A program made the position numbers and the translations under genes. The notes under the pieces were generated by a model. The model was not told where the DNA came from, did not search any database, and worked only from the letters and a program-made list of their open reading frames with translations. A DNA stretch of 30,708 bases from positions 1-30,708 of the forward strand of contig JBLNCY010000009.1 in the NCBI GenBank assembly GCA_050261115.1, given 5' to 3'. Below are positions 8,864-29,812 of the stretch, piece by piece. This stretch comes from Methanocella sp. (GTDB lineage Archaea > Thermoproteota > Bathyarchaeia > Bathyarchaeales > Bathycorpusculaceae). Each line of letters begins with the position of its first letter. The stretch's first letter is position 1.

Positions 8864-10150
8864 GTTTCAATCCTTGTTTTGCTGGATTAGCCTTTTGGAC
8901 CTCACTCTCTCTCTATAGTAATATCTAGAAATAGTTTCAATCCTTGTTTTGTTGGATTAGCCTTTTGGACTGGGAACACCAATATCAGCGATGAACAAAC
9001 AACCATCAGTTTCAATCCTTGTTTTGTTGGATTAGCCTTTTGGACGGCACTATATATGCGAAAGAAGTTGCTTTTCCACTGTTTCAATCCTTGTTTTGTT
9101 GGATTAGCCTTTTGGACCTAATCACGGATGCAGGCACATGAGAACTGATGAATGTTTCAATCCTTGTTTTGTTGGATTAGCCTTTTGGACTCCCATTTTA
9201 CCCTTTTATCTGCAGCTTTCGCCATGTTTCAATCCTTGTTTTGTCGGATTAGCCTTTTGGACGTCGTCCACATACGCATTTTGTACTGTGTTTCTTGTAG
9301 CCAGTTTCAATCCTTGTTTTGTTGGATTAGCCTTTTGGACCTCACTCTCTCTCTATAGTAATATCTAGAAATAGTTTCAATCCTTGTTTTGTTGGATTAG
9401 CCTTTTGGACGCGCTTGGGGCACCAAACAAGGTGGTAGTTAATCAGTTTCAATCCTTGTTTTGTTGGATTAGCCTTTTGGACGCTCCGAAACCGTCACCT
9501 TCTCATGCGTGAACATATCAGGTTTCAATCCTTGTTTTGTTGGATTAGCCTTTTGGACAAAATAGACTATGCGATCCTTGCAGCGGTTGACCCCAGGTTT
9601 CAATCCTTGTTTTGTTGGATTAGCCTTTTGGACTGCGGAGAAATTCAAGGGGCGTCATGTTCATAGAGGTAGCGTTTCAATCTTGTTTTGTTGGATTAGC
9701 CTTTTGGACTTTTTTGTACCGACAGGTTCAATCGCAGGGAGCTAGTTTCAATCCTTGTTTTGTTGGATTAGCCTTTTGGACTTCTTTTTATATTGACAGT
9801 TGCTATTGGATGATTTGGGGGTTTCAATCCTTGTTTTGTTGGATTAGCCTTTTGGACCTGAATCCCCCTACCTTAATTCACCTACAAATACGTTTCAATC
9901 CTTGTTTTGTTGGATTAGCCTTTTGGACAGTGAGTTCACCACGTCGTCCCGATGACATTATATCGCGTTTCAATCCTTGTTTTGTTGGATTAGCCTTTTG
10001 GACGGTTAAGTTGGTGGGAACGTGACGCACTTGAGCATCGTTTCAATCCTTGTTTTGTTGGATTAGCCTTTTGGACGGTATCTACTAACAGGGGATTAGC
10101 AAACAATGGGAAAGTTTCAATCCTTGTTTTGTTGGATTAGCCTTTTGGAC
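8864..10150 (-). CRISPR. CRISPR array of 18 repeats (37 bp, minus strand GTCCAAAAGGCTAATCCAACAAAACAAGGATTGAAAC) and 17 spacers of 33-41 bp
   Basis: Repeats start (+ coordinates) at 8864, 8934, 9009, 9081, 9154, 9226, 9304, 9374, 9446, 9522, 9597, 9674, 9745, 9821, 9892, 9967, 10040 and 10114. Variants at 8864 (T>C), 9226 (T>C) and 9674 (1-nt deletion). Orientation from the 3' ATTGAAAC handle and the leader position. Confidence 0.99.
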
Positions 10151-22209: not shown

Positions 22210-22279
22210 TTTACTGGTTGGGGACGCTTAATATGTATCGGTGGATGAAGTCAGCCGTCCCAGCCTTAGGGCAAAGTAA
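22210..22279 (+). repeat. degenerate att-like copy C of the sRNA-derived site
   Basis: CGGTGGATGAAGTCAGCCGTCCCAGCC resembles the core of copies A and B. The 26 bp at 22254-22279 are identical to 23336-23361. An inverted arm GGTTGGGGACG is retained. Confidence 0.85.
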
Positions 22280-22319
22280 CTTTATTGGGACTAAATTACT
22301 GAAATAATACTATGCTCTT

Positions 22320-23126
22320 CTAGTTATAAGTCTTTAGACAATTCCGCTTCTTTATCATAACGAAGATAGTCAAAGGAATAACCACTAACAAAGACAATAT
22401 CCAGAAGAAAGAGAACTCTGGAACAGAAGGAGACGGAGCTGATGTATCGGTTGGTGTAATTGTAATGTTTTTATCAATTGTTACTATCTGCGTATCGCTC
22501 CAATCAGTGTATTCGCCTTCAAAATAGTATTTTATTAACTCTCCGCCCATAAACACAACGCCCAAGTCATATTTGTTATCATGTCCTATCAGCGCTTGTA
22601 CTTGGACATCTAATTGACCCCCTTCAGGAATGTTTGATGTTCGCCAATTCGGCAAGGTGAAAATTGAATATTCTGAATGCGATGCATCAAGATATTGACT
22701 TCCGCGAGCGCCAGTTTGAAAGGGGTCTACTGGATGAGATGCAGAACCATAATCAGTAGGCACAACGGGGTAGTATATCCACTTGGTTTCATTTTCATAG
22801 TGACCTTTGAATCTTAGATTATAATACAGGCTTGTATGGTTGCCACTTGAATCAATGGTAGAGGTAAACGCTTGGTTCCTGATTTTTACCTCAATAGAGA
22901 AATTATCAAAGTGACCACCCTGCGAGGTAATTATCGTCTCTCCTGTGTAGGGGTCAACAGTAGATTTTGGGGGTAAATCATAAGCATGGTTGACATATTG
23001 CACAACAAATTCTGGCACTGATGGTTTAGATATTGATTGACCAGTAGTAGGTGCAGCTATTAGTAGAAAAGATGCTGCTAAGATTGCACTCAAGAGTATG
23101 GAGAGATACTTACTCATCTTAGTCAT
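22320..23126 (-). CDS. secreted cell-surface protein with a PEF-CTERM-like anchor
   Basis: Signal peptide, KPSVPEF...DPYTG N-domain, Thr/Pro/Ser linker, then VPEF, TM helix and basic tail. Confidence 0.8.
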   Translation of the reverse strand: MTKMSKYLSILLSAILAASFLLIAAPTTGQSISKPSVPEFVVQYVNHAYDLPPKSTVDPYTGETIITSQGGHFDNFSIEVKIRNQAFTSTIDSSGNHTSLYYNLRFKGHYENETKWIYYPVVPTDYGSASHPVDPFQTGARGSQYLDASHSEYSIFTLPNWRTSNIPEGGQLDVQVQALIGHDNKYDLGVVFMGGELIKYYFEGEYTDWSDTQIVTIDKNITITPTDTSAPSPSVPEFSFFWILSLLVVIPLTIFVMIKKRNCLKTYN

Positions 23127-23222
23127 AATTGAACTAATCTGTTTGTTTGGTTATATAATTTACTTATTAGAACTAAATCTTCGATTTCTTTCAAAATAGG
23201 GAACTTACTTTAATGTTGAGTA

Positions 23223-23250
23223 GGCGGCAACCCTTGTGGTTGCTCGCTTC
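23223..23250. repeat. 28-bp hairpin repeat, copy 1 (GGCGGCAACCCTTGTGGTTGCTCGCTTC)
   Basis: Identical to 24855-24882. Contains the GCAACC/GGTTGC stem. Confidence 0.9.
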
Positions 23251-23289
23251 GAGCTGTTTGTGATCGATTTTTTTTCTTTCTCTTCCAAA

Positions 23290-23361
23290 GCCCTTAAGTG
23301 ACTGGGATGATGCACTATCTACGGGGGATGATGTCGCCGTCCCAGCCTTAGGGCAAAGTAA
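23290..23361 (+). repeat. att-like copy A (left end of the autonomous element)
   Basis: 23300-23345 matches 29149-29194 at 41/46 positions, including a 24-bp identical core (23322-23345 = 29171-29194). Extended imperfect palindrome GCCCTTAAG...CTTAGGGC. Confidence 0.9.
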
Positions 23362-23411
23362 TTTTTTTACACTAATTTCTCTATTTTAATCCTTAATACT
23401 CTAAGGAGTCG

Positions 23412-23565
23412 TCTAGTTATAAGTCTTACTAGTCAAATTATCGGCATTGTTTTAAAGCTTAACTACGGAATAGATTAGATTAAAACAACCGCTGTAAGCA
23501 CTATTAAATAAGTCGCTTTTAGTATCAAAATTAAATGAAAGAATCCGTTAACTCTGGATGTCACC
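23412..23565 (-). pseudogene. possible decayed 3' end of a paralog of the 22320-23126 surface-protein gene
   Basis: 16 bp TCTAGTTATAAGTCTT (KTYN* on the minus strand) shared with 22319-22334. Upstream are CCAGAG (PE) and a hydrophobic broken frame FHLILILKATYLIVLTAVVLI*. Confidence 0.4.
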
Positions 23566-23718
23566 GATTATCAAGTTTGCCTAGTGATTTTTCATTATTC
23601 TATCTTAATTAATTATCCCTTAGTAGCTTACTGTTGTGAGACTCAAGCTTTTTTAATAGGAGTATGCTTTTGAAACAGAGTGTAATTATTTTTAACGCGC
23701 GCTAAAATTTCAACCAGA

Positions 23719-24729
23719 TTGGTATTGATCATGAAACAAGCTTATTGTATGAATAAAGAGGAAAAGCTACGATTAGGTCTGAGAATATGTAGCGGTATCG
23801 TTTCAAACTTTGTGGGTGTAAAAACTCCTCTATTTTGTGGTCATAAATTAACATATAATTGTAACTTGAAATGTAAAATGTGTCCTTTTTGGAAGAGAAA
23901 TGCTCAGGATTTGAGCATAGAGAAAGAAAAAATCATTTTAAAGAGGATTTATGATGCAGGCGTTTGCGGAATCGCTTTTGAAGGTGGTGAGCCTCTTCTA
24001 AGAAAAGACTTGGCGGAAATTCTCCAATATGCTAGGTCTTTACCTATGCAAACAAGCCTTATCACCAATGGAACATTATTGGAATCCAGAATAGATGAAA
24101 TAGCTAGATATGTCAACGGGGGCATTTTTGTTTCAATTGATGGTATAGGAAAAACACATGATGAAATCAGGGGTGTTAGTGGTTGTTTTAAAAAAGCCAT
24201 AGAAGGAATTACTGCCGCTTCTCAAAGGATGTCTATTACGATCAATACAACGATAATGGCTGAAAACATCCATGAGATTGAAGATTTGGTAAAGTTGGCA
24301 AAGGAATTAGATGTAAAAATATCTGTTGCTGTAGCACATGATTATGGCAACGCTAAAGTGTTAGCGCTTTCAAGTCAAGAACTAAGTGATATCGCTGAAA
24401 AGCTTGTTTTATTGAAGAAAATGGGTTTTCCTCTCATAAATTCAATAGGTTACTTCCAAGTCATGGCTAAAAGGAAAAATTGGAGTTGTAAGCCTTGGTC
24501 AACGATTAACGTTAGTCCTGAAGGGTCTTTGGTTTTGCCTTGTTATGTGCGAAATAGATATGCAGCTTCTGTTTCTACTTTTGAAACCAGCATTAAAAAT
24601 GCGATTTCAGAGTTTGACTGGAAAACAATACAGAATTGCCAAATTTGTACGCTTCATTGCTATGTTGAGCCATCGCTGGCGCTTTCCTATGATTTGGGTG
24701 TTTTGAGGAATTGGGCTTTTCCTTCCTAA
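23719..24729 (+). CDS. radical SAM protein with a C-terminal SPASM/Twitch-like Cys cluster, resembling the archaeal PTO1314 family
   Basis: GHKLTYNCNLKCKMCPFW (CxxxCxxC), FEGGEPLLR, ITNGTLL, VSIDG, and C-terminal C..PC..CQICTLHC. The family assignment is from memory. Confidence 0.85.
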   Translation: MVLIMKQAYCMNKEEKLRLGLRICSGIVSNFVGVKTPLFCGHKLTYNCNLKCKMCPFWKRNAQDLSIEKEKIILKRIYDAGVCGIAFEGGEPLLRKDLAEILQYARSLPMQTSLITNGTLLESRIDEIARYVNGGIFVSIDGIGKTHDEIRGVSGCFKKAIEGITAASQRMSITINTTIMAENIHEIEDLVKLAKELDVKISVAVAHDYGNAKVLALSSQELSDIAEKLVLLKKMGFPLINSIGYFQVMAKRKNWSCKPWSTINVSPEGSLVLPCYVRNRYAASVSTFETSIKNAISEFDWKTIQNCQICTLHCYVEPSLALSYDLGVLRNWAFPS

Positions 24730-24854
24730 GGGGTGTCCCAGCTAGGAGGGGGTTGTCTTGATTAGTACTCTAGTTAATTTTAAATAATAGCGATAGTTGA
24801 AATTCTAAGGAAATTATTGTTAGTGTGCTTACTAAATTTTTGAAAAAAATTATC

Positions 24855-24882
24855 GGCGGCAACCCTTGTGGTTGCTCGCTTC
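24855..24882. repeat. 28-bp hairpin repeat, copy 2
   Basis: Identical to 23223-23250. Sits between the cargo and the core module. Confidence 0.9.
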
Positions 24883-24910
24883 CCACATATCTCTCTAAAC
24901 CGTGATAGTT

Positions 24911-25561
24911 CTAACTTTTCTCAAGGGCATCTTTAAGAAACAGTTCAGTTTTCTTCATTTTTTCCATAATCTCCACTATTTGTTCTTTAAACCCTGAGAA
25001 CTGCTCTGGATACTTCTTCATAAGAGCGATTACATCTAACACTTTTTCCAAGCTCAAATCCTTCATAAGTCCAGTACTGAGCATTAGAGAAACATCGCTA
25101 TCTTCCAATTTTCCTTTTTTGAGGATTGCTTGATAGCCTACCTGATATATGTCTGTCCCAAGGTATGTTGTAAGCTCAACAAAACATTGAAGCAGCTTAT
25201 TATCAGGATACACTTCGGCTGTTCGATTCAGAACAGTTTTTACGTTTGCACCATAAACGAGCGCAACAAATACTGCGCCAGACGTTAGCCAATAAACTGA
25301 GTGTTCTTGACTTCGGTATTCCTCTTTTTTGATTTCGACAAGTATCCTTTTCTCTATAAGGTCATCGATTGCGTCATACACTGATTTGTAGTATCCCTTA
25401 ATTCCTCTTTTCACGCCGTATTTAGATTTTGGAAGATTTTCTGCGAGGTATAGCAGAATCTGCTTCTGCAAAGGTGGCAAATATTGATTTTCTGTTACGC
25501 CTTTTAATGTATGTTCTCCCTCAGTCGGCTGGGACATAGTATGTACTCCGAATTCTGCCAA
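24911..25561 (-). CDS. winged-helix DNA-binding protein (element regulator)
   Basis: LPPLQKQILLYLAEN.PKSKYGV...YKSVYDAIDDLIEKRILV...YWLT fits a wHTH. Divergent from rep. The start may be ATG 25537. Confidence 0.7.
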   Translation of the reverse strand: MAEFGVHTMSQPTEGEHTLKGVTENQYLPPLQKQILLYLAENLPKSKYGVKRGIKGYYKSVYDAIDDLIEKRILVEIKKEEYRSQEHSVYWLTSGAVFVALVYGANVKTVLNRTAEVYPDNKLLQCFVELTTYLGTDIYQVGYQAILKKGKLEDSDVSLMLSTGLMKDLSLEKVLDVIALMKKYPEQFSGFKEQIVEIMEKMKKTELFLKDALEKS

Positions 25562-25612
25562 GTTATACGGTTTCTATATTAACGGTCGGCAGTTAATCTT
25601 TCGGTGTAATAC

Positions 25613-26659
25613 TTGGAAAACAATCAAGTAATAAATAATCAAAATAACTCGGTAGAAAATGATTGGCTTGAATATAATCAACAATTCGAGTCTAACAGCA
25701 ACGGTAAAATTAAGAACGATTTTTGGATTTATGGCGAGTATGAACTTGTCGGTCATGGCAAACAGACATCCCCTAAATGCGGATTATTCAACAAACATGT
25801 GGGATGCTTAGACTATAAGGCACACAATCAAGCTCGCTTCTTCACTGAAGGTTTACCTGAAAATGCTGTTTTCGTTAAACCAATCTATCATTCATGCGAT
25901 AAACCTACTTGTCCTGTATGCTTCAAGTATGGTTGGGCTGTTCGTGAAGCTTACCGCATGGAAGCACGCCTAAAAGAAGCTTCTAACCGTTTCGGGCTTC
26001 CAGTTGAACATATTGTCGCAAGCATCAGAAGCGAAGACTATGGGTTAAGCCTTGATGCGTTACGACAAAAAGCCATTAAACTCATGGCTAAACGTGGAAT
26101 AATCGGCGGTTCCATTATCTTTCATGGTTTCCGTTATGCTAACCGAAAAGAAGCTCGCATAAAAGGGGTTCCATTTGGCTGGCGGTGGAGTCCTCACTTT
26201 CATATTCTCGGTTTTGTTGGTGGTGAAGGTTACGGTTTATGCCGTAAGTGCAAAGGCGGTGACTGCTATTCCTGCAAAGGTTTCGAAGGTGTCACGCGGC
26301 GTGAGAACAAAAAGGACGGTTGGATTGTCAAAGTCCTTGAAAAAAGAAAAACCGTAGGCGGTACTTGCTGGTATCAACTTAACCACTGCTCAGTTCAAAG
26401 AGGCTCTAAAAAATCACATGCTACAACATGGTTCGGTGCTTGCTCCTATCGAAAATTAGAGATAATCAACGGCGAGAAAGACGTTGGAATACAACACAAA
26501 TGCCCAATCTGCAACTCCGAATTAGTCCACATCCGCTACTTAGGCAACGCTAAACTATTGCTTACTCGAAAAGGCGAAGTCCAAAGCATGTTTGCCGAGG
26601 ATGGCACACCACTTTGGGAAGTAGCGCATGAAGGTGAATGTCATGGGGAGTGCGGATAA
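25613..26659 (+). CDS. rep: HUH-superfamily rolling-circle replication initiator with Zn-binding motifs
   Basis: EHIVAS (motif I), WSPHFHILG (HUH), WYQLNH (catalytic Tyr), GGSIIFHGFR, TWFG. Cys clusters SCDKPTCPVC, CRKC...CYSC and CPIC. Confidence 0.85.
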   Translation: MENNQVINNQNNSVENDWLEYNQQFESNSNGKIKNDFWIYGEYELVGHGKQTSPKCGLFNKHVGCLDYKAHNQARFFTEGLPENAVFVKPIYHSCDKPTCPVCFKYGWAVREAYRMEARLKEASNRFGLPVEHIVASIRSEDYGLSLDALRQKAIKLMAKRGIIGGSIIFHGFRYANRKEARIKGVPFGWRWSPHFHILGFVGGEGYGLCRKCKGGDCYSCKGFEGVTRRENKKDGWIVKVLEKRKTVGGTCWYQLNHCSVQRGSKKSHATTWFGACSYRKLEIINGEKDVGIQHKCPICNSELVHIRYLGNAKLLLTRKGEVQSMFAEDGTPLWEVAHEGECHGECG

Positions 26660-26661
26660 AA

Positions 26662-26985
26662 ATGATTCGTCAACAAAGAAGGCGAAGGGAGCGCCAATGG
26701 GCTAAAATAAACGTGGGTGACGACTGCACAAAATTCATTGAGCGAGAAAATCTCTTTGCTATGCCTCAAGTCATAGAGTTCCAAGCGGTAAAAATCTCAA
26801 AGAAACGCCTGAAAGTTCGTAGTGTAGGCGTTTTTGAGAACCATCGATACGGTGGGCATATTGAGCTTGAAACAACCTGTGAATGGGTTGAGGGAGAATT
26901 CAAAATGCTATCCCACAAACAAGTCGGCGTCATTCCCGAAGGCGATTTATGGGAAGCTGAGGAAATCGATGACTCCAGCGCTTAA
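26662..26985 (+). CDS. hypothetical element protein
   Basis: ATG 26662 lies 2 nt after the rep stop (the ORF track starts it at 26638). Arg-rich N-terminus and acidic C-terminus. Confidence 0.6.
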   Translation: MIRQQRRRRERQWAKINVGDDCTKFIERENLFAMPQVIEFQAVKISKKRLKVRSVGVFENHRYGGHIELETTCEWVEGEFKMLSHKQVGVIPEGDLWEAEEIDDSSA

Positions 26986-26991
26986 CGTTTG

Positions 26992-27053
26992 GCTCTTGCG
27001 GAACATTCGGCAAGGGCGAGTGGAGCGACCCGCGAAGCGGGAGCGAAGCGAAC
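26992..27053. other. GC-rich hairpin cluster, candidate replication origin (dso or sso)
   Basis: GCTCTTGC..GCAAGGGC stem (26992-27017), CCCGC-GAA-GCGGG (27029-27041) and GAGCGA/GAAGCG iterations just after the rep operon. Confidence 0.5.
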
Positions 27054-27131
27054 AATCTAAAAGAACCTGAAATAATGGTCGCATACTAAAAGATTTGTCG
27101 CAACCTTCTAGCAAAGTAACGAACTAGACTA

Positions 27132-28115
27132 TTATTTGTTTTCTATATTTTCAAGGAGTCTATTTATTATCTTCAACTTCTTCCCCTCTAAATGCGATAT
27201 CGGGTCAGGTTTTATAGAATATTCGCTCTTATCCGTTTTTTCAAAGACTCTTTTTAGCAGGTCGCTGAAGTTATTCTCAGAACTTTCGAGAAAACGGTAA
27301 AGCGTAATTAGCTGTTTTTGATTAAAAATACTTAGAAAAACATGCCCGACATCAAACTCATTCCGCAAGACCATAATAGGAATAAAGTTGCTTTCAATCT
27401 CTTTTTTAGAATATCCAAGCTTTGCTAATTCACACCTCACATCATCAATTCTTTCCCCGAACAAGACCTGCAATACTTTGCATAGGTTTAAAATGGTCTC
27501 AGCCATAAATTCGAAAATAGAATTCCCCGTTTCAGCTAATCTTCTTGCAACATAAGAATAATAAGCTGCGGCAATCAGTCGCCGACTGTTAAGGTTCTCA
27601 ATCTTTAAGAATGAGTTAAGCGCCTTTTTTTCCTGAAATTCATCGTCAGTAACATCAAAACTTGAACTTCTTTGGTCAATTTCCCAGTTAAACTCAACGT
27701 TCCCTACCTTTCCCTTCGTATTTTGAATTAAAGGTGCTTCTATCAATTCAATATTTAATAGCAGTGGCAAAGTAAAATGCGAGGTCTCAAGTAGGTTTTG
27801 TAAGTCTTCTCTAGAATTACAATGTTGTCTAACGGTGAGTAAGTTGCCTTTTAGATGCAGTGTTAGATTATTCCACACAACTTTAGTGTCAATTTCTTTG
27901 AGTGATAAATCAGAATGAACCCACGTTCTTCCCGTATTCGCATCAAAAATAAGATTCGCATTGCTTCCTTTCTTAATGGTCTTTCCAACTTTTAATGGAT
28001 TACCAAATTGAGTTGACGGTTTGAACAAAACATTGATTTCAACATCATTCGGAAAAGAAATCGCCGTCTTGCCATTTAACCTTAAAACTCTATGTTGCAA
28101 TTGATAGGTTAGCAT
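27132..28115 (-). CDS. putative HEPN-domain protein (ApeA/MauJ-like architecture)
   Basis: Beta-rich N-terminus and a helical C-terminus with AAYYSYVARR...ILNLCKVLQ...LRNEFDVGH (Rx6H). Confidence 0.55.
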   Translation of the reverse strand: MLTYQLQHRVLRLNGKTAISFPNDVEINVLFKPSTQFGNPLKVGKTIKKGSNANLIFDANTGRTWVHSDLSLKEIDTKVVWNNLTLHLKGNLLTVRQHCNSREDLQNLLETSHFTLPLLLNIELIEAPLIQNTKGKVGNVEFNWEIDQRSSSFDVTDDEFQEKKALNSFLKIENLNSRRLIAAAYYSYVARRLAETGNSIFEFMAETILNLCKVLQVLFGERIDDVRCELAKLGYSKKEIESNFIPIMVLRNEFDVGHVFLSIFNQKQLITLYRFLESSENNFSDLLKRVFEKTDKSEYSIKPDPISHLEGKKLKIINRLLENIENK

Positions 28116-28180
28116 ATTTGCCCTCGTGCTTTAGTTACTCTTTTCTTGAGGTTTTTATGGTTTTTGTGGTTATTTCGATC

Positions 28181-29116
28181 TCAATTAGGTTTTTTAAAAT
28201 ATGTTATTCCTTCTGCTTGGCACACTAGAATGCAGTCGTCTTTGATGGCTTGCTCTATTTCCGCTTGGTTATGGCATACTATAGGTATCCAGCTTACGTT
28301 AGAGTCATCAAAAACACTGATATAGCGTTCTATGCTTCGTAAGTCCTTGTGTCCAAGCAATTGTTTTACATAGAAGGTATTGTGCTGTGAGAGAGTATAT
28401 TCTTTAGATGCTTTAAATCGCCTGAAATCATACAAGCAGATTTGTTTTAGCTCTGGCATGTTGTAATCTTTGGCTAATCGATTTCTAGAATGCCGATAGT
28501 TGTTTGCAAAGTTATCGGAGGTTATATTGAATAATCGGCTATTGGCGTTAAGCTGCTTTTTCTGTATGTAGATTTTCAAAAGCCCGATTGATTTTGCCTT
28601 CAGTTTTCCATCTCTTCCTACAGTGTGTTTGGCTCCTGTTATGCTTACCATTCCTGTGTTTAGGTCTATGTCTTTGACTGTTAACCATATTAGCTCTTGA
28701 GGTCGAGTTCCCAAGTCTTTCGTCATTGATAATTTAAGAGATAATTCTAAACGGAAGTGATTTATCATAAAGTCCAAGAGGGCTTCTTTGGGTGCTCTGT
28801 GTTTTTTGTCATAACGTTGATAAAAAGGTTGGTTCCATGTTAAGCCTAAGGATTTTATTAGTATTGCATATGATTCTATGAGGTTCTCTTTTCGGGCATT
28901 CGAGCAGTTCTTTTTAGCTATGAAAAGTTTGACTGCTTCAGGATTATTCGTATTGCAGTTGCGTTCTAAGTGCCTTAGTTCCTTAGCTACTCTTTTTACT
29001 GTGGTTTGTTCATAGGCGTTCTTTAGCATCCACAGCATAACGTTTGGGATATTTAGTTTTCCGATGTCTTGGGGTTGTTCGTTACTTTCCTGCTGGGTTT
29101 TTTGGTTTTTGCTCAA
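28181..29116 (-). CDS. tyrosine recombinase/integrase
   Basis: GTRPQEL (R), GAKH (K), YDFRR (HxxR variant), LLGHKDLRSIERY (H, Y). Starts ~30 bp from att copy B. Confidence 0.93.
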   Translation of the reverse strand: MSKNQKTQQESNEQPQDIGKLNIPNVMLWMLKNAYEQTTVKRVAKELRHLERNCNTNNPEAVKLFIAKKNCSNARKENLIESYAILIKSLGLTWNQPFYQRYDKKHRAPKEALLDFMINHFRLELSLKLSMTKDLGTRPQELIWLTVKDIDLNTGMVSITGAKHTVGRDGKLKAKSIGLLKIYIQKKQLNANSRLFNITSDNFANNYRHSRNRLAKDYNMPELKQICLYDFRRFKASKEYTLSQHNTFYVKQLLGHKDLRSIERYISVFDDSNVSWIPIVCHNQAEIEQAIKDDCILVCQAEGITYFKKPN

Positions 29117-29138
29117 TTTTCATTTCCTATTACGGTAG

Positions 29139-29196
29139 CCCTTTAATAGACTGGGATGCTGTTCTATCAGCGGGGGATGATGTCGCCGTCCCAGTC
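29139..29196 (+). repeat. att-like copy B (integrase-proximal end), including TATA-like TTTAATA at 29142-29148
   Basis: Direct repeat of 23290-23345, with inverted arms GACTGGGATG / CGTCCCAGTC. Confidence 0.9.
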
Positions 29197-29237
29197 TGAT
29201 TGGGAAAGATGACGAATAAAAACGATTGACAGACCCC
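29172..29237 (+). ncRNA. box C/D 2'-O-methylation guide sRNA, predicted to guide 23S rRNA Gm2251 (E. coli numbering)
   Basis: Terminal stem GGGG/CCCC. C box ATGATGT (29177-83), 12-nt guide CGCCGTCCCAGT, D' CTGA (29196-99), C' ATGACGA (29209-15), D CAGA (29230-33). Geometry fits a K-turn and a TATA lies ~24 nt upstream. The guide pairs with the conserved P-loop RCUGGGGCGGY. Confidence 0.8.
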
Positions 29238-29254
29238 AAAGGGAGCCAAACTGT

Positions 29255-29392
29255 ATGCAGTGCCCAAAATGTAAATCCAACCGCGTTGAGCGTCAACGTA
29301 ACCAGGAAGTTAAGTGTCTAGCGTGTGGTATGGTGTTTTATTTTGTTACGCCTGACACGGGTTCGCTGGATTATAGCCGATACGAACTCTAA
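29255..29392 (+). CDS. small zinc-ribbon protein (45 aa), absent from the ORF track
   Basis: MQCPKCKSNRVERQRNQEVKCLACGMVFYFVTPDTGSLDYSRYEL has CxxC-x14-CxxC, with GGGAG upstream. Confidence 0.75.
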   Translation: MQCPKCKSNRVERQRNQEVKCLACGMVFYFVTPDTGSLDYSRYEL

Positions 29393-29440
29393 AACCTCAT
29401 CCATCTCGTTTTTCCCTTATATTTTAGGGGTCAACCTTAA

Positions 29441-29456
29441 ATGAATAATTATTCAT
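29441..29456. promoter_or_regulatory. perfect 16-bp palindrome, probable ArsR-family operator overlapping the TATA box
   Basis: ATGAATAA-TTATTCAT directly at CTTAAAT, upstream of the ArsR gene. Confidence 0.7.
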
Positions 29457-29464
29457 ATGATTAG

Positions 29465-29812
29465 GTGTTCATACAAATCACGAGTAGGTGCAGCACAACG
29501 AAGAAAGCCCCCACAAAACTCTGCCACCGCGTATTCGCAAACCTAGCCAACCCCACACGCCTCGCAGCCATCGAGCAACTCATCAACAAGCCGCTGAGCG
29601 TGACCGAACTCGCAAAAGCCCTGGGAAAAGAACAAAGCATGATCAGCCACAACATCAAGCCCCTAATCGAATGCAACATCCTAACCAGTCACCGAATGGG
29701 AAAAAAACACATCCTAACCGTAAACCTGGAAACCATCGCACCTATATTCGAAGCCATAGAAAACCACAACCTAAAATTCTGCCCCTACGGCGGAAAATGC
29801 AGGGAGGAATAG
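29465..29812 (+). CDS. ArsR/SmtB-family transcriptional regulator
   Basis: VFANLANPTRLAAIEQL..KPLSVTELAKALGKEQSMISHNIKPL and a C-terminal HNLKFCPYGGKC metal or redox motif. Start uncertain. Confidence 0.9.
   Translation: MFIQITSRCSTTKKAPTKLCHRVFANLANPTRLAAIEQLINKPLSVTELAKALGKEQSMISHNIKPLIECNILTSHRMGKKHILTVNLETIAPIFEAIENHNLKFCPYGGKCREE

Follow-up and report, generated by a model that had tools for sequence, protein, structure and literature searches.

We analyzed a stretch of 30,708 nucleotides (nt), referred to as the window in the following, which is the complete contig C9 of a 66-contig, 2.15-Mb Bathyarchaeia assembly. At positions 29172..29237 (here and below on the forward strand unless indicated otherwise) the window contains an unannotated gene of 66 nt with the architecture of a box C/D small RNA (sRNA). 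An original prediction, made from the letters alone, had proposed that its D' guide directs 2'-O-methylation of G2251 in the P-loop of 23S ribosomal RNA (rRNA). The gene is located between a divergent open reading frame (ORF) of 311 amino acids (aa) (28181-29116, reverse strand) and a 45-aa zinc-ribbon ORF (29255-29392). Reading from 5' to 3', we found the 5' strand of a terminal stem, GGGG (29172..29175), which is extended by G29176 to the run GGGGG (29172-29176), a variant C box AUGAUGU (29177..29183; consensus RUGAUGA), a D' guide of 12 nt, CGCCGUCCCAGU (DNA CGCCGTCCCAGT; 29184..29195), with C29191 at its position 5, and a D' box CUGA (29196..29199). These are followed by a D'-C' linker of 9 nt, TTGGGAAAG (29200..29208), which presumably forms a kink-loop (K-loop), a C' box AUGACGA (29209..29215), an A/T-rich and apparently targetless D spacer of 14 nt, ATAAAAACGATTGA (29216..29229), a variant D box CAGA (29230..29233; consensus CUGA) and the 3' strand of the terminal stem, CCCC (29234..29237). 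This anatomy matches the earlier box-by-box description letter for letter, including the placement of C29191 as the fifth base upstream of D'. A TATA-like box TTTAATAG (29143..29150), which may serve as promoter, ends 22 nt before the first G of the RNA, and an A/T-rich TATA-like block is found ~22-30 nt upstream of the sRNA in all of 19 same-genus relatives.

Applying a regular expression that specifies all parts of the architecture (C, D', C' and D boxes, spacers of 10-14 nt and a terminal stem of at least 3 pairs), we found a single match in the 2.15-Mb assembly, at 29172-29237, and none in 10 Markov-1 simulated genomes. With a query of 281 nt the sRNA was found in 21 of 24 genomes of the same genus (E <= 8e-14); the three genomes without it are 56%, 58% and 88% complete. 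The borders of the gene are sharp: in many of these genomes the limits of the match are those of the RNA (query positions 53-119/121). In an alignment of the window sequence with its counterparts from the 19 relatives, no variation was seen in the stem, the C box, the D' guide, the D' box and the D box; the C' box followed the form AUGA(A/C/G)GA and the linker read UYGGGAAAG in most members of the genus. The flanks vary, and so does the D spacer, both in sequence and in length (11-14 nt). The original prediction had counted on boxes that are conserved in relatives, and this is what we observed, with variation at one position of the C' box.

For a broader survey we searched a collection of species genomes with a pattern consisting of the C box, the guide core and the D' box only, and all counts given for this search refer to the matches listed. 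We observed at least 121 stretches, most of them in Bathyarchaeia, with others in Iainarchaeum, Micrarchaeota, Thermoprotei, Acidilobaceae and Jord-, Njord- and Baldr-archaea. In 108 of the 121 listed stretches a C' box and a D box are also present at the correct spacing; the remainder comprises three loci truncated at contig ends, a single partial copy and nine chance or coding matches, including the bacterial ones. From these data we built alignment A1 with 103 distinct sequences, in which 95.1% of the terminal-stem cells are paired and all four pairs of the stem show double-sided changes (for example GAGC/GCUC in DPANN). The covariation score of the stem is 0.161, compared to 0.075 for shuffles (0 of 500 reach the observed value) and at most 0.094 for slid partners. 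The D' box is an invariant column in A1, but the search pattern itself demanded CUGA; the C' box was not selected for by the pattern. Six DPANN versions keep the P-loop guide together with the canonical boxes UGAUGA and CUGA. Their stems are GAGC/GCUC or GGC/GCC, and they share a distinct conserved D guide, GG(U/G)GGUAACUG.

The variant boxes of the window are the usual ones among these homologs. The C box AUGAUGU fits the consensus at 6 of 7 positions, and its final U is the majority form (87 of 108 listed homologs). The D box CAGA fits at 3 of 4 positions, keeps the GA needed for the sheared pairs and is used in 92 of 107 listed homologs; its second base, A, is paired with C-box U5 in 88 of the 103 aligned sequences. 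The combination of T7, CAGA and A-1, which gives U-A, G-C and U-A after the sheared G-A pairs, was seen in 72 of 108 listed homologs, and the C' box form AUGA(A/G/C)GA in 93 of 108. The spacing from C to D' is 12 nt, and that from C' to D is 14 nt here versus 12 nt in 63 of 107 listed homologs. Judged by what is generally known of kink-turns, the variant C and D boxes may form a workable one.

Next, we compared the D' guide with its proposed target. The 23S rRNA of the host breaks off before the P-loop, and for this reason the 23S sequences of relatives were used as a stand-in. The P-loop reads GGCUGGGGCGGCA in three genomes of the same genus (G003, G014 and G008) and in one genome of another family (G040). 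With GCUGGGGCGGCA in the 23S rRNAs of G003 and G014 the guide forms 11 consecutive pairs, nine of them Watson–Crick (positions 2-6 and 8-11) and two G-U (positions 1 and 7), followed by a mismatch at position 12. The complementarity had been announced as about 11 pairs with one or two G-U; we found 11 with two, for a P-loop shared by the 23S rRNAs of four relatives. The P-loop is also the best site of the guide in 16S and 23S rRNA, with a score of 19, compared to 14 (in 16S) and 9 for the next sites. Guide position 5 stands opposite the second of the four Gs in GGGG; counting on rrlH of E. coli MG1655 (A2247 C2248 U2249 G2250 G2251) identifies this base as G2251, so that the proposed register holds in the relatives' 23S rRNA. 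The most likely site of the predicted 2'-O-methylation is thus the second G of GGCUGGGGCGG, the G2251 equivalent. Six further occurrences of the P-loop motif in the host genome were inspected and discarded, as they are not rRNA.

The D spacer behaves differently. We found no credible target for it in the 16S and 23S rRNAs of G003 and G014 (one register) or in 41 host transfer RNAs (tRNAs; two registers). Its best rRNA score of 10 is reached by 92% of random 12-mers and its best tRNA score is 8; both are weak, and the second guide, for which no target had been assigned before, still has none that could be assigned. Among the homologs, 33 of 107 listed have a D guide that scores at least 15 at position 2710 of the G003 23S rRNA, where position 5 corresponds to E. 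coli U2593; these guides read (A)CUCAUGACGG(A) and pair with ACCGUCGUGAGA. In a looser test (at most 1 mismatch at positions 2-11) 44 of 108 listed homologs pair with the U2593 site. Two D guides of the Thermoprotei type, CCUCGUGACGAU, fit helix H89 better (U2460 equivalent), and 58 listed D guides are without any site scoring at least 15 on the reference rRNA. Within the genus the D guide CUUAUGACGG is kept only by two loci (L018 and L029) and by a second gene of G003 (L178). The predicted U2593-directed guide is mostly lost in the host genus, and the RNA of the window appears to be a single-guide sRNA with a drifted D spacer. Genome G003 has two full sRNA genes, L178 (C1, ~601.6 kb) and L175 (~1107 kb). 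The former keeps the 12-nt D guide GCUUAUGACGGA, whereas in the latter, which has two partial copies and a fragment of an integrase for neighbours, the D spacer has drifted.

The protein machinery of a C/D ribonucleoprotein (RNP) is encoded by the host: fibrillarin (323 bits) and Nop5 (243 bits) in adjacent genes on contig C4 and L7Ae (101 bits) on contig C43. The rRNA operon of the host is poorly assembled, with the 16S rRNA split across two contig ends (C24 and C18) and recovered as several separate matches, and the 23S rRNA lacking its 3' 40%. We also considered whether the sRNA is the only C/D sRNA of the genome. Two regular-expression scans returned the sRNA and one dubious match, and the claim was dropped since the Rfam model snoPyro_CD scored a second candidate higher. 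This plausible second C/D sRNA (contig C31, 92791-92844, reverse strand) is the best snoPyro_CD match of the genome with 22.3 bits, below the cut-off, and consists of GCC, GATGAAGA, a 10-nt spacer, CTGA, TTGA, TGATGC, a 12-nt spacer, CTGA and GGC.

By regarding the surroundings of the gene more closely we observed that its 5' half is repeated. The first 23 nt of the sRNA occur twice in the window (29172-29194 and 23323-23345), where no second occurrence would be expected by chance (0 expected). The upstream occurrence is the core of a partial copy at 23300..23345, which resembles a left attachment site (attL) and comprises a promoter-like region, the C box and the guide; 41 of its 46 bases are identical to 29149-29194. 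After ...CCCAG of this copy the sequence turns to CCTTAGGGC, and the element end that follows reads CCTTAGGGCAAAGTAATTTTTTT (23346-23368). From the sequence one may speculate that CCCAGCCTTAGGG in this end could fold into a small hairpin and that the T-run could terminate a truncated RNA. Between the direct repeats lies an integrated element of 5.8 kb (23346..29171) with a G+C content of 0.38-0.42, compared to ~0.47 in most contigs. At its right end, divergent from the sRNA, it encodes the 311-aa protein (28181..29116, reverse strand), a tyrosine integrase (PF00589, 35.4 bits at a cut-off of 27.1; phrog_216 at 1.2e-11). An assignment as chromosomal XerA was rejected, because the XerA model gave only 40 bits against a cut-off of 220.

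The core gene of the element (25613..26659) encodes 348 aa. Its Atlas feature scores of 0.95-0.96, template-modelling (TM) scores of 0.50-0.55 to clusters of PF01446 (Rep_1) and an HFHIL stretch in the translation provide a lead, and the protein may be a rolling-circle replication protein (Rep). Homologs of this gene are located downstream of the junction in G008 and in five metagenome loci. Beside the integrase, the other proteins of the element, the core protein included, gave no significant Pfam match even at E up to 5. The extra cargo is a radical S-adenosylmethionine (SAM) protein of the PTO1314 family (23719..24729; TIGR03961, 320.9 bits at a cut-off of 306), whose gene is missing in the otherwise collinear metagenome copy L226.

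An older, decayed copy of the junction is present at 22240..22279, where GGTGGATGAAGTCAGCCGTCCCAG is followed by CCTTAGGGCAAAGTAA; compared to the core it has 2 substitutions and 1 inserted A. The decayed 5'-half copy within it (22240-22263) bounds a remnant of 1 kb (22264-23299), and homologs of the remnant ORF 22320-23126 are found inside elements in two other loci (L202 and L249). Since this third copy is likewise fused to an element end, the island can be read as a tandem of the 1-kb remnant and the 5.8-kb element.

The same arrangement was observed elsewhere. The layout of partial copy, CCTTAGGGC junction, cargo, integrase and full sRNA is repeated in G008 and G010, and G003 shows it in tandem form, with a pair of partial copies. 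In 11 of the 19 relatives' loci the sequence immediately upstream of the sRNA holds an integrase homolog or a fragment of one. The genes downstream (zinc ribbon, ArsR, ferredoxin-like) are syntenic in four of the loci (L012, L014, L018 and L026), whose upstream side differs. A 27-nt junction sequence was found in 21 of 81 genomes of the same genus and with a reversed-pattern control in none. In metagenomes it was present in 71 stretches, of which 7 have an integrase just upstream, as would fit either free attP sites or tandem copies, and 6 have a full sRNA 0.5-1.8 kb downstream; several show the gene order of the window element, minus the radical-SAM cargo. An origin of the partial copies as ordinary local duplications is contradicted by the recurrence of the CCTTAGGG junction in other genomes and metagenomes. 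A scan of IMG/VR with 19 nt of the 5' half gave 11 matches, which we discarded as chance, apparently in unrelated coding sequence; none had the GGGGG lead, the boxes or homologs of the element's proteins.

These observations suggest that small integrative elements recombine in the invariant 5' half of the sRNA gene. In our judgment the C/D sRNA gene is probably the attachment (att) site of small Bathyarchaeia elements with a tyrosine integrase and possibly a rolling-circle Rep, which would insert in the 5' half and supply a promoter, C box and P-loop guide of their own, giving rise to a chimaeric host RNA under an element-borne promoter. We propose that integrase elements use the 5' half as attachment site because pairing with an invariant rRNA loop keeps it from changing, and that the sRNA gene is rebuilt after insertion by the promoter and 5' half which the elements bring along. 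The original 5' half, once displaced, would stay behind, followed by a T-run.

Taken together, it is highly probable in our view that 29172-29237 is a box C/D sRNA gene which guides methylation of G2251 in the P-loop and whose 5' half doubles as an integration site. The sRNA would be transcribed from its own TATA-like promoter, and its GGGG and CCCC ends would pair so that the C and D boxes form a variant kink-turn. In this motif two sheared G-A pairs would be followed by Watson–Crick U-A, G-C, U-A and C-G pairs, which would replace the usual U-U. The D' and C' boxes would form a K-loop, and L7Ae, Nop5 and fibrillarin are expected to assemble on both motifs. The 12-nt D' guide would then pair with the 23S equivalent of E. 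coli 2247-2257, and fibrillarin would methylate the 2'-OH opposite guide position 5, the G2251 of the P-loop. The 14-nt D spacer, its target having been lost, would act merely as a spacer.

Several observations weigh against this interpretation. The C box AUGAUGU, the D box CAGA and the 14-nt D spacer all deviate from the consensus, and Rfam at gathering scores gave no match at the sRNA locus. In E-value mode Rfam returned five matches within 28900-29500, all to C/D families, on the forward strand and with identical ends, but these are weak (E 1.7-7.2; snoU31b 17.2 bits, E 1.7; snoPyro_CD 13.7 bits). The 23S rRNA of the host covers only model positions 16-1783 and ends at a contig end, so that its own P-loop is unassembled. 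A pairing as good as that of the guide is not rare either: equal scores somewhere in 16S and 23S rRNA were reached by 148 of 5000 12-mers drawn at random from the genome and by 237 of 5000 shuffles of the guide. What carries weight instead is the site with its exact register, the conservation of the guide across phyla and its alignment with the guide of U31 in Rfam. Moreover, the guide pairs with nt 1-11 of tRNA-Cys(GCA) (located by aragorn at [39442,39517] of the host assembly) with position 5 on G5. With regard to integration, a tblastx search of the 19 relatives' loci revealed no empty site, as in none of them the left flank of the window adjoins the sRNA directly. No excised circle was found, though raw reads were not examined, and in the metagenome stretches an intact free attP is indistinguishable from tandem copies.

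Among the alternatives, the one we regard as least improbable, though still unlikely, is a genuine C/D sRNA whose function is not methylation of G2251, for example a 23S folding chaperone acting through P-loop pairing or a guide for another target such as G5 of tRNA-Cys. The pairing with tRNA-Cys scores 18 versus 19 for the P-loop, and variant boxes might impair catalysis. On the other hand, the guide does not change between Bathyarchaeia, DPANN, Thermoprotei and Asgard, as would be expected more readily if it pairs with an invariant rRNA loop than if it pairs with the acceptor stem of a tRNA. The guide spacing is the canonical 12 nt, and position 5 falls exactly on a nucleotide whose modification in several organisms is reported (PMC4644070). 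Because the guide is conserved far beyond the genus, we rate tRNA-Cys as an unlikely target, and its match, with a G-rich acceptor stem, is probably a coincidence. A chance resemblance of the whole locus hardly needs to be reckoned with at all: the Rfam E-values lie above 1 and 3-5% of random guides pair equally well, but the architecture had no match in 10 simulated genomes, is conserved in 21 of 24 genomes of the genus and far beyond, and has a covarying stem, so that the comparative data already refute it.

We also considered that the 66 nt might be a mere recombination site or relic of mobile elements, conserved for integrases and without a functional RNA, which we judge very unlikely. It would account for the integrases or fragments that adjoin the sRNA in 11 of the 19 relatives' loci and for the copy of the 5' half carried by the elements. 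Yet repeats and junctions span only the 5' 23-28 nt, whereas the C' box, the D box and the covarying stem are also conserved, even in integrase-free loci and in distant phyla; in addition, the partial copies lack the 3' half, one full copy is retained per genome and the guide matches the P-loop. Still less credible is a role as 5' leader or kink-turn regulator of the zinc-ribbon ORF, with translational control by bound L7Ae. Such a reading draws on the start of this ORF only 18 nt past the sRNA, its conservation downstream in four relatives' loci and an RNA-library contig that begins at 29215 and extends into it. However, the downstream sequence is unrelated in most homologs, a leader needs neither the two-motif architecture nor a 12-nt guide complementary to rRNA, and the contig cannot reveal a transcript start and may derive from DNA.

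The methylation-guide sRNA itself is ordinary, as guides directed to G2251 have already been predicted in archaea. Dennis et al. 2015 (PMC4644070) predicted C/D sRNAs in three archaea for alignment position G2520, the equivalent of E. coli G2251. In the supplement of that paper Sac-sR110 has the D' spacer CGCCGCTCCAGT, with its targets listed as NP; this spacer differs from CGCCGTCCCAGT of the window at two positions. The window sRNA belongs to one RNA class with these archaeal sRNAs and has the same predicted target nucleotide and the same protein machinery, and it is unlike them in its Bathyarchaeia lineage, the AUGAUGU/CAGA boxes, the second guide lost in the genus and the probable use of the gene as an integration site. 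In a limited literature search we found no paper on C/D sRNAs in Bathyarchaeia. In bacteria (RlmB) and mitochondria (Mrm1/Pet56) Gm2251 is made by protein-only, guide-free methyltransferases of the SpoU type; the predicted product, a 2'-O-methyl-G at the P-loop, would be the same, with RNA guidance instead in the system of the window. Eukaryotic U31/SNORD31 and yeast snR67 target the same P-loop G. The family snoU31b (RF01285) is the only one in Rfam whose guide, GUCGCCCCAGUCU, aligns to that of the sRNA: the guide core CCCAGUCU before D' aligns with its consensus at 17.2 bits (E 1.7), which is insignificant and far below the gathering score of 37. Eukaryotic U31 RNAs are longer and have degenerate C'/D' motifs, unlike the window sRNA, and since a shared target forces similar guides, common descent with U31 cannot be claimed.

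For the integration site the closest parallel is provided by the integrases that target tRNA and transfer-messenger RNA (tmRNA) genes (Williams 2002, as cited in PMC11705971). Common to both are a tyrosine integrase next to the gene of a small stable RNA, direct repeats of the target segment, an element that carries the displaced part of the gene, and the presence of tandem as well as decayed copies. Unlike those elements, the target here would be a C/D guide-RNA gene, of which the promoter and the 5' half are replaced. Our limited literature search yielded no report of a C/D sRNA gene as integration site, and the text of PMC6009581 contains no mention of integrase, integration, virus or viral. 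If the proposal is true, this would be, within the scope of that search, the first C/D guide-RNA gene, as opposed to a tRNA or tmRNA gene, to be used in this way. The logic would be the same as for tRNA and tmRNA targets, an rRNA-frozen segment being a dependable target, and methylation guide RNAs would join the stable RNAs whose genes are used as attachment sites. The 23-nt core then offers a handle for finding such elements in archaeal metagenomes. With respect to the RNA, our analysis adds an unannotated, well-supported C/D sRNA to the uncultured Bathyarchaeia. As the P-loop (G2251) guide is spread over Bathyarchaeia, DPANN, Thermoprotei and Asgard, it is well suited as a marker when C/D sRNAs are annotated in genomes from metagenomes, and together with its target it may rank among the oldest guide-target pairs. 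The fixed AUGAUGU and CAGA boxes probably represent a natural kink-turn variant, for which L7Ae binding is measurable.

Transcript data were compared as contigs of four metatranscriptome runs from four studies (the run listing comprised 20 runs with 6 RNA libraries). The contigs cover the locus from 29215 or 29248 onward and not 29172-29214, and they are uninformative either way with regard to the 66-nt RNA. One contig of run X12, 168 nt long at a depth of 3.5 and with remnants of adapters on either end, spans 29215-29348, from the C' box into the zinc-ribbon ORF; this contig, which may stem from DNA, is silent on co-transcription of the sRNA and the ORF. This downstream host neighbour (29255..29392, 45 aa) has a weak match to Zn_Ribbon_TF, below the cut-off, and is conserved downstream of the sRNA in L012, L013, L019 and L026. 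Further upstream in the window we observed an array of clustered regularly interspaced short palindromic repeats (CRISPR; 8864-10150, reverse strand) with 17 repeats of 37 nt (Rfam CRISPR-DR7), which are the only matches to Rfam at gathering scores across the window. The long ORFs that flank the array on both sides are probably cas genes.

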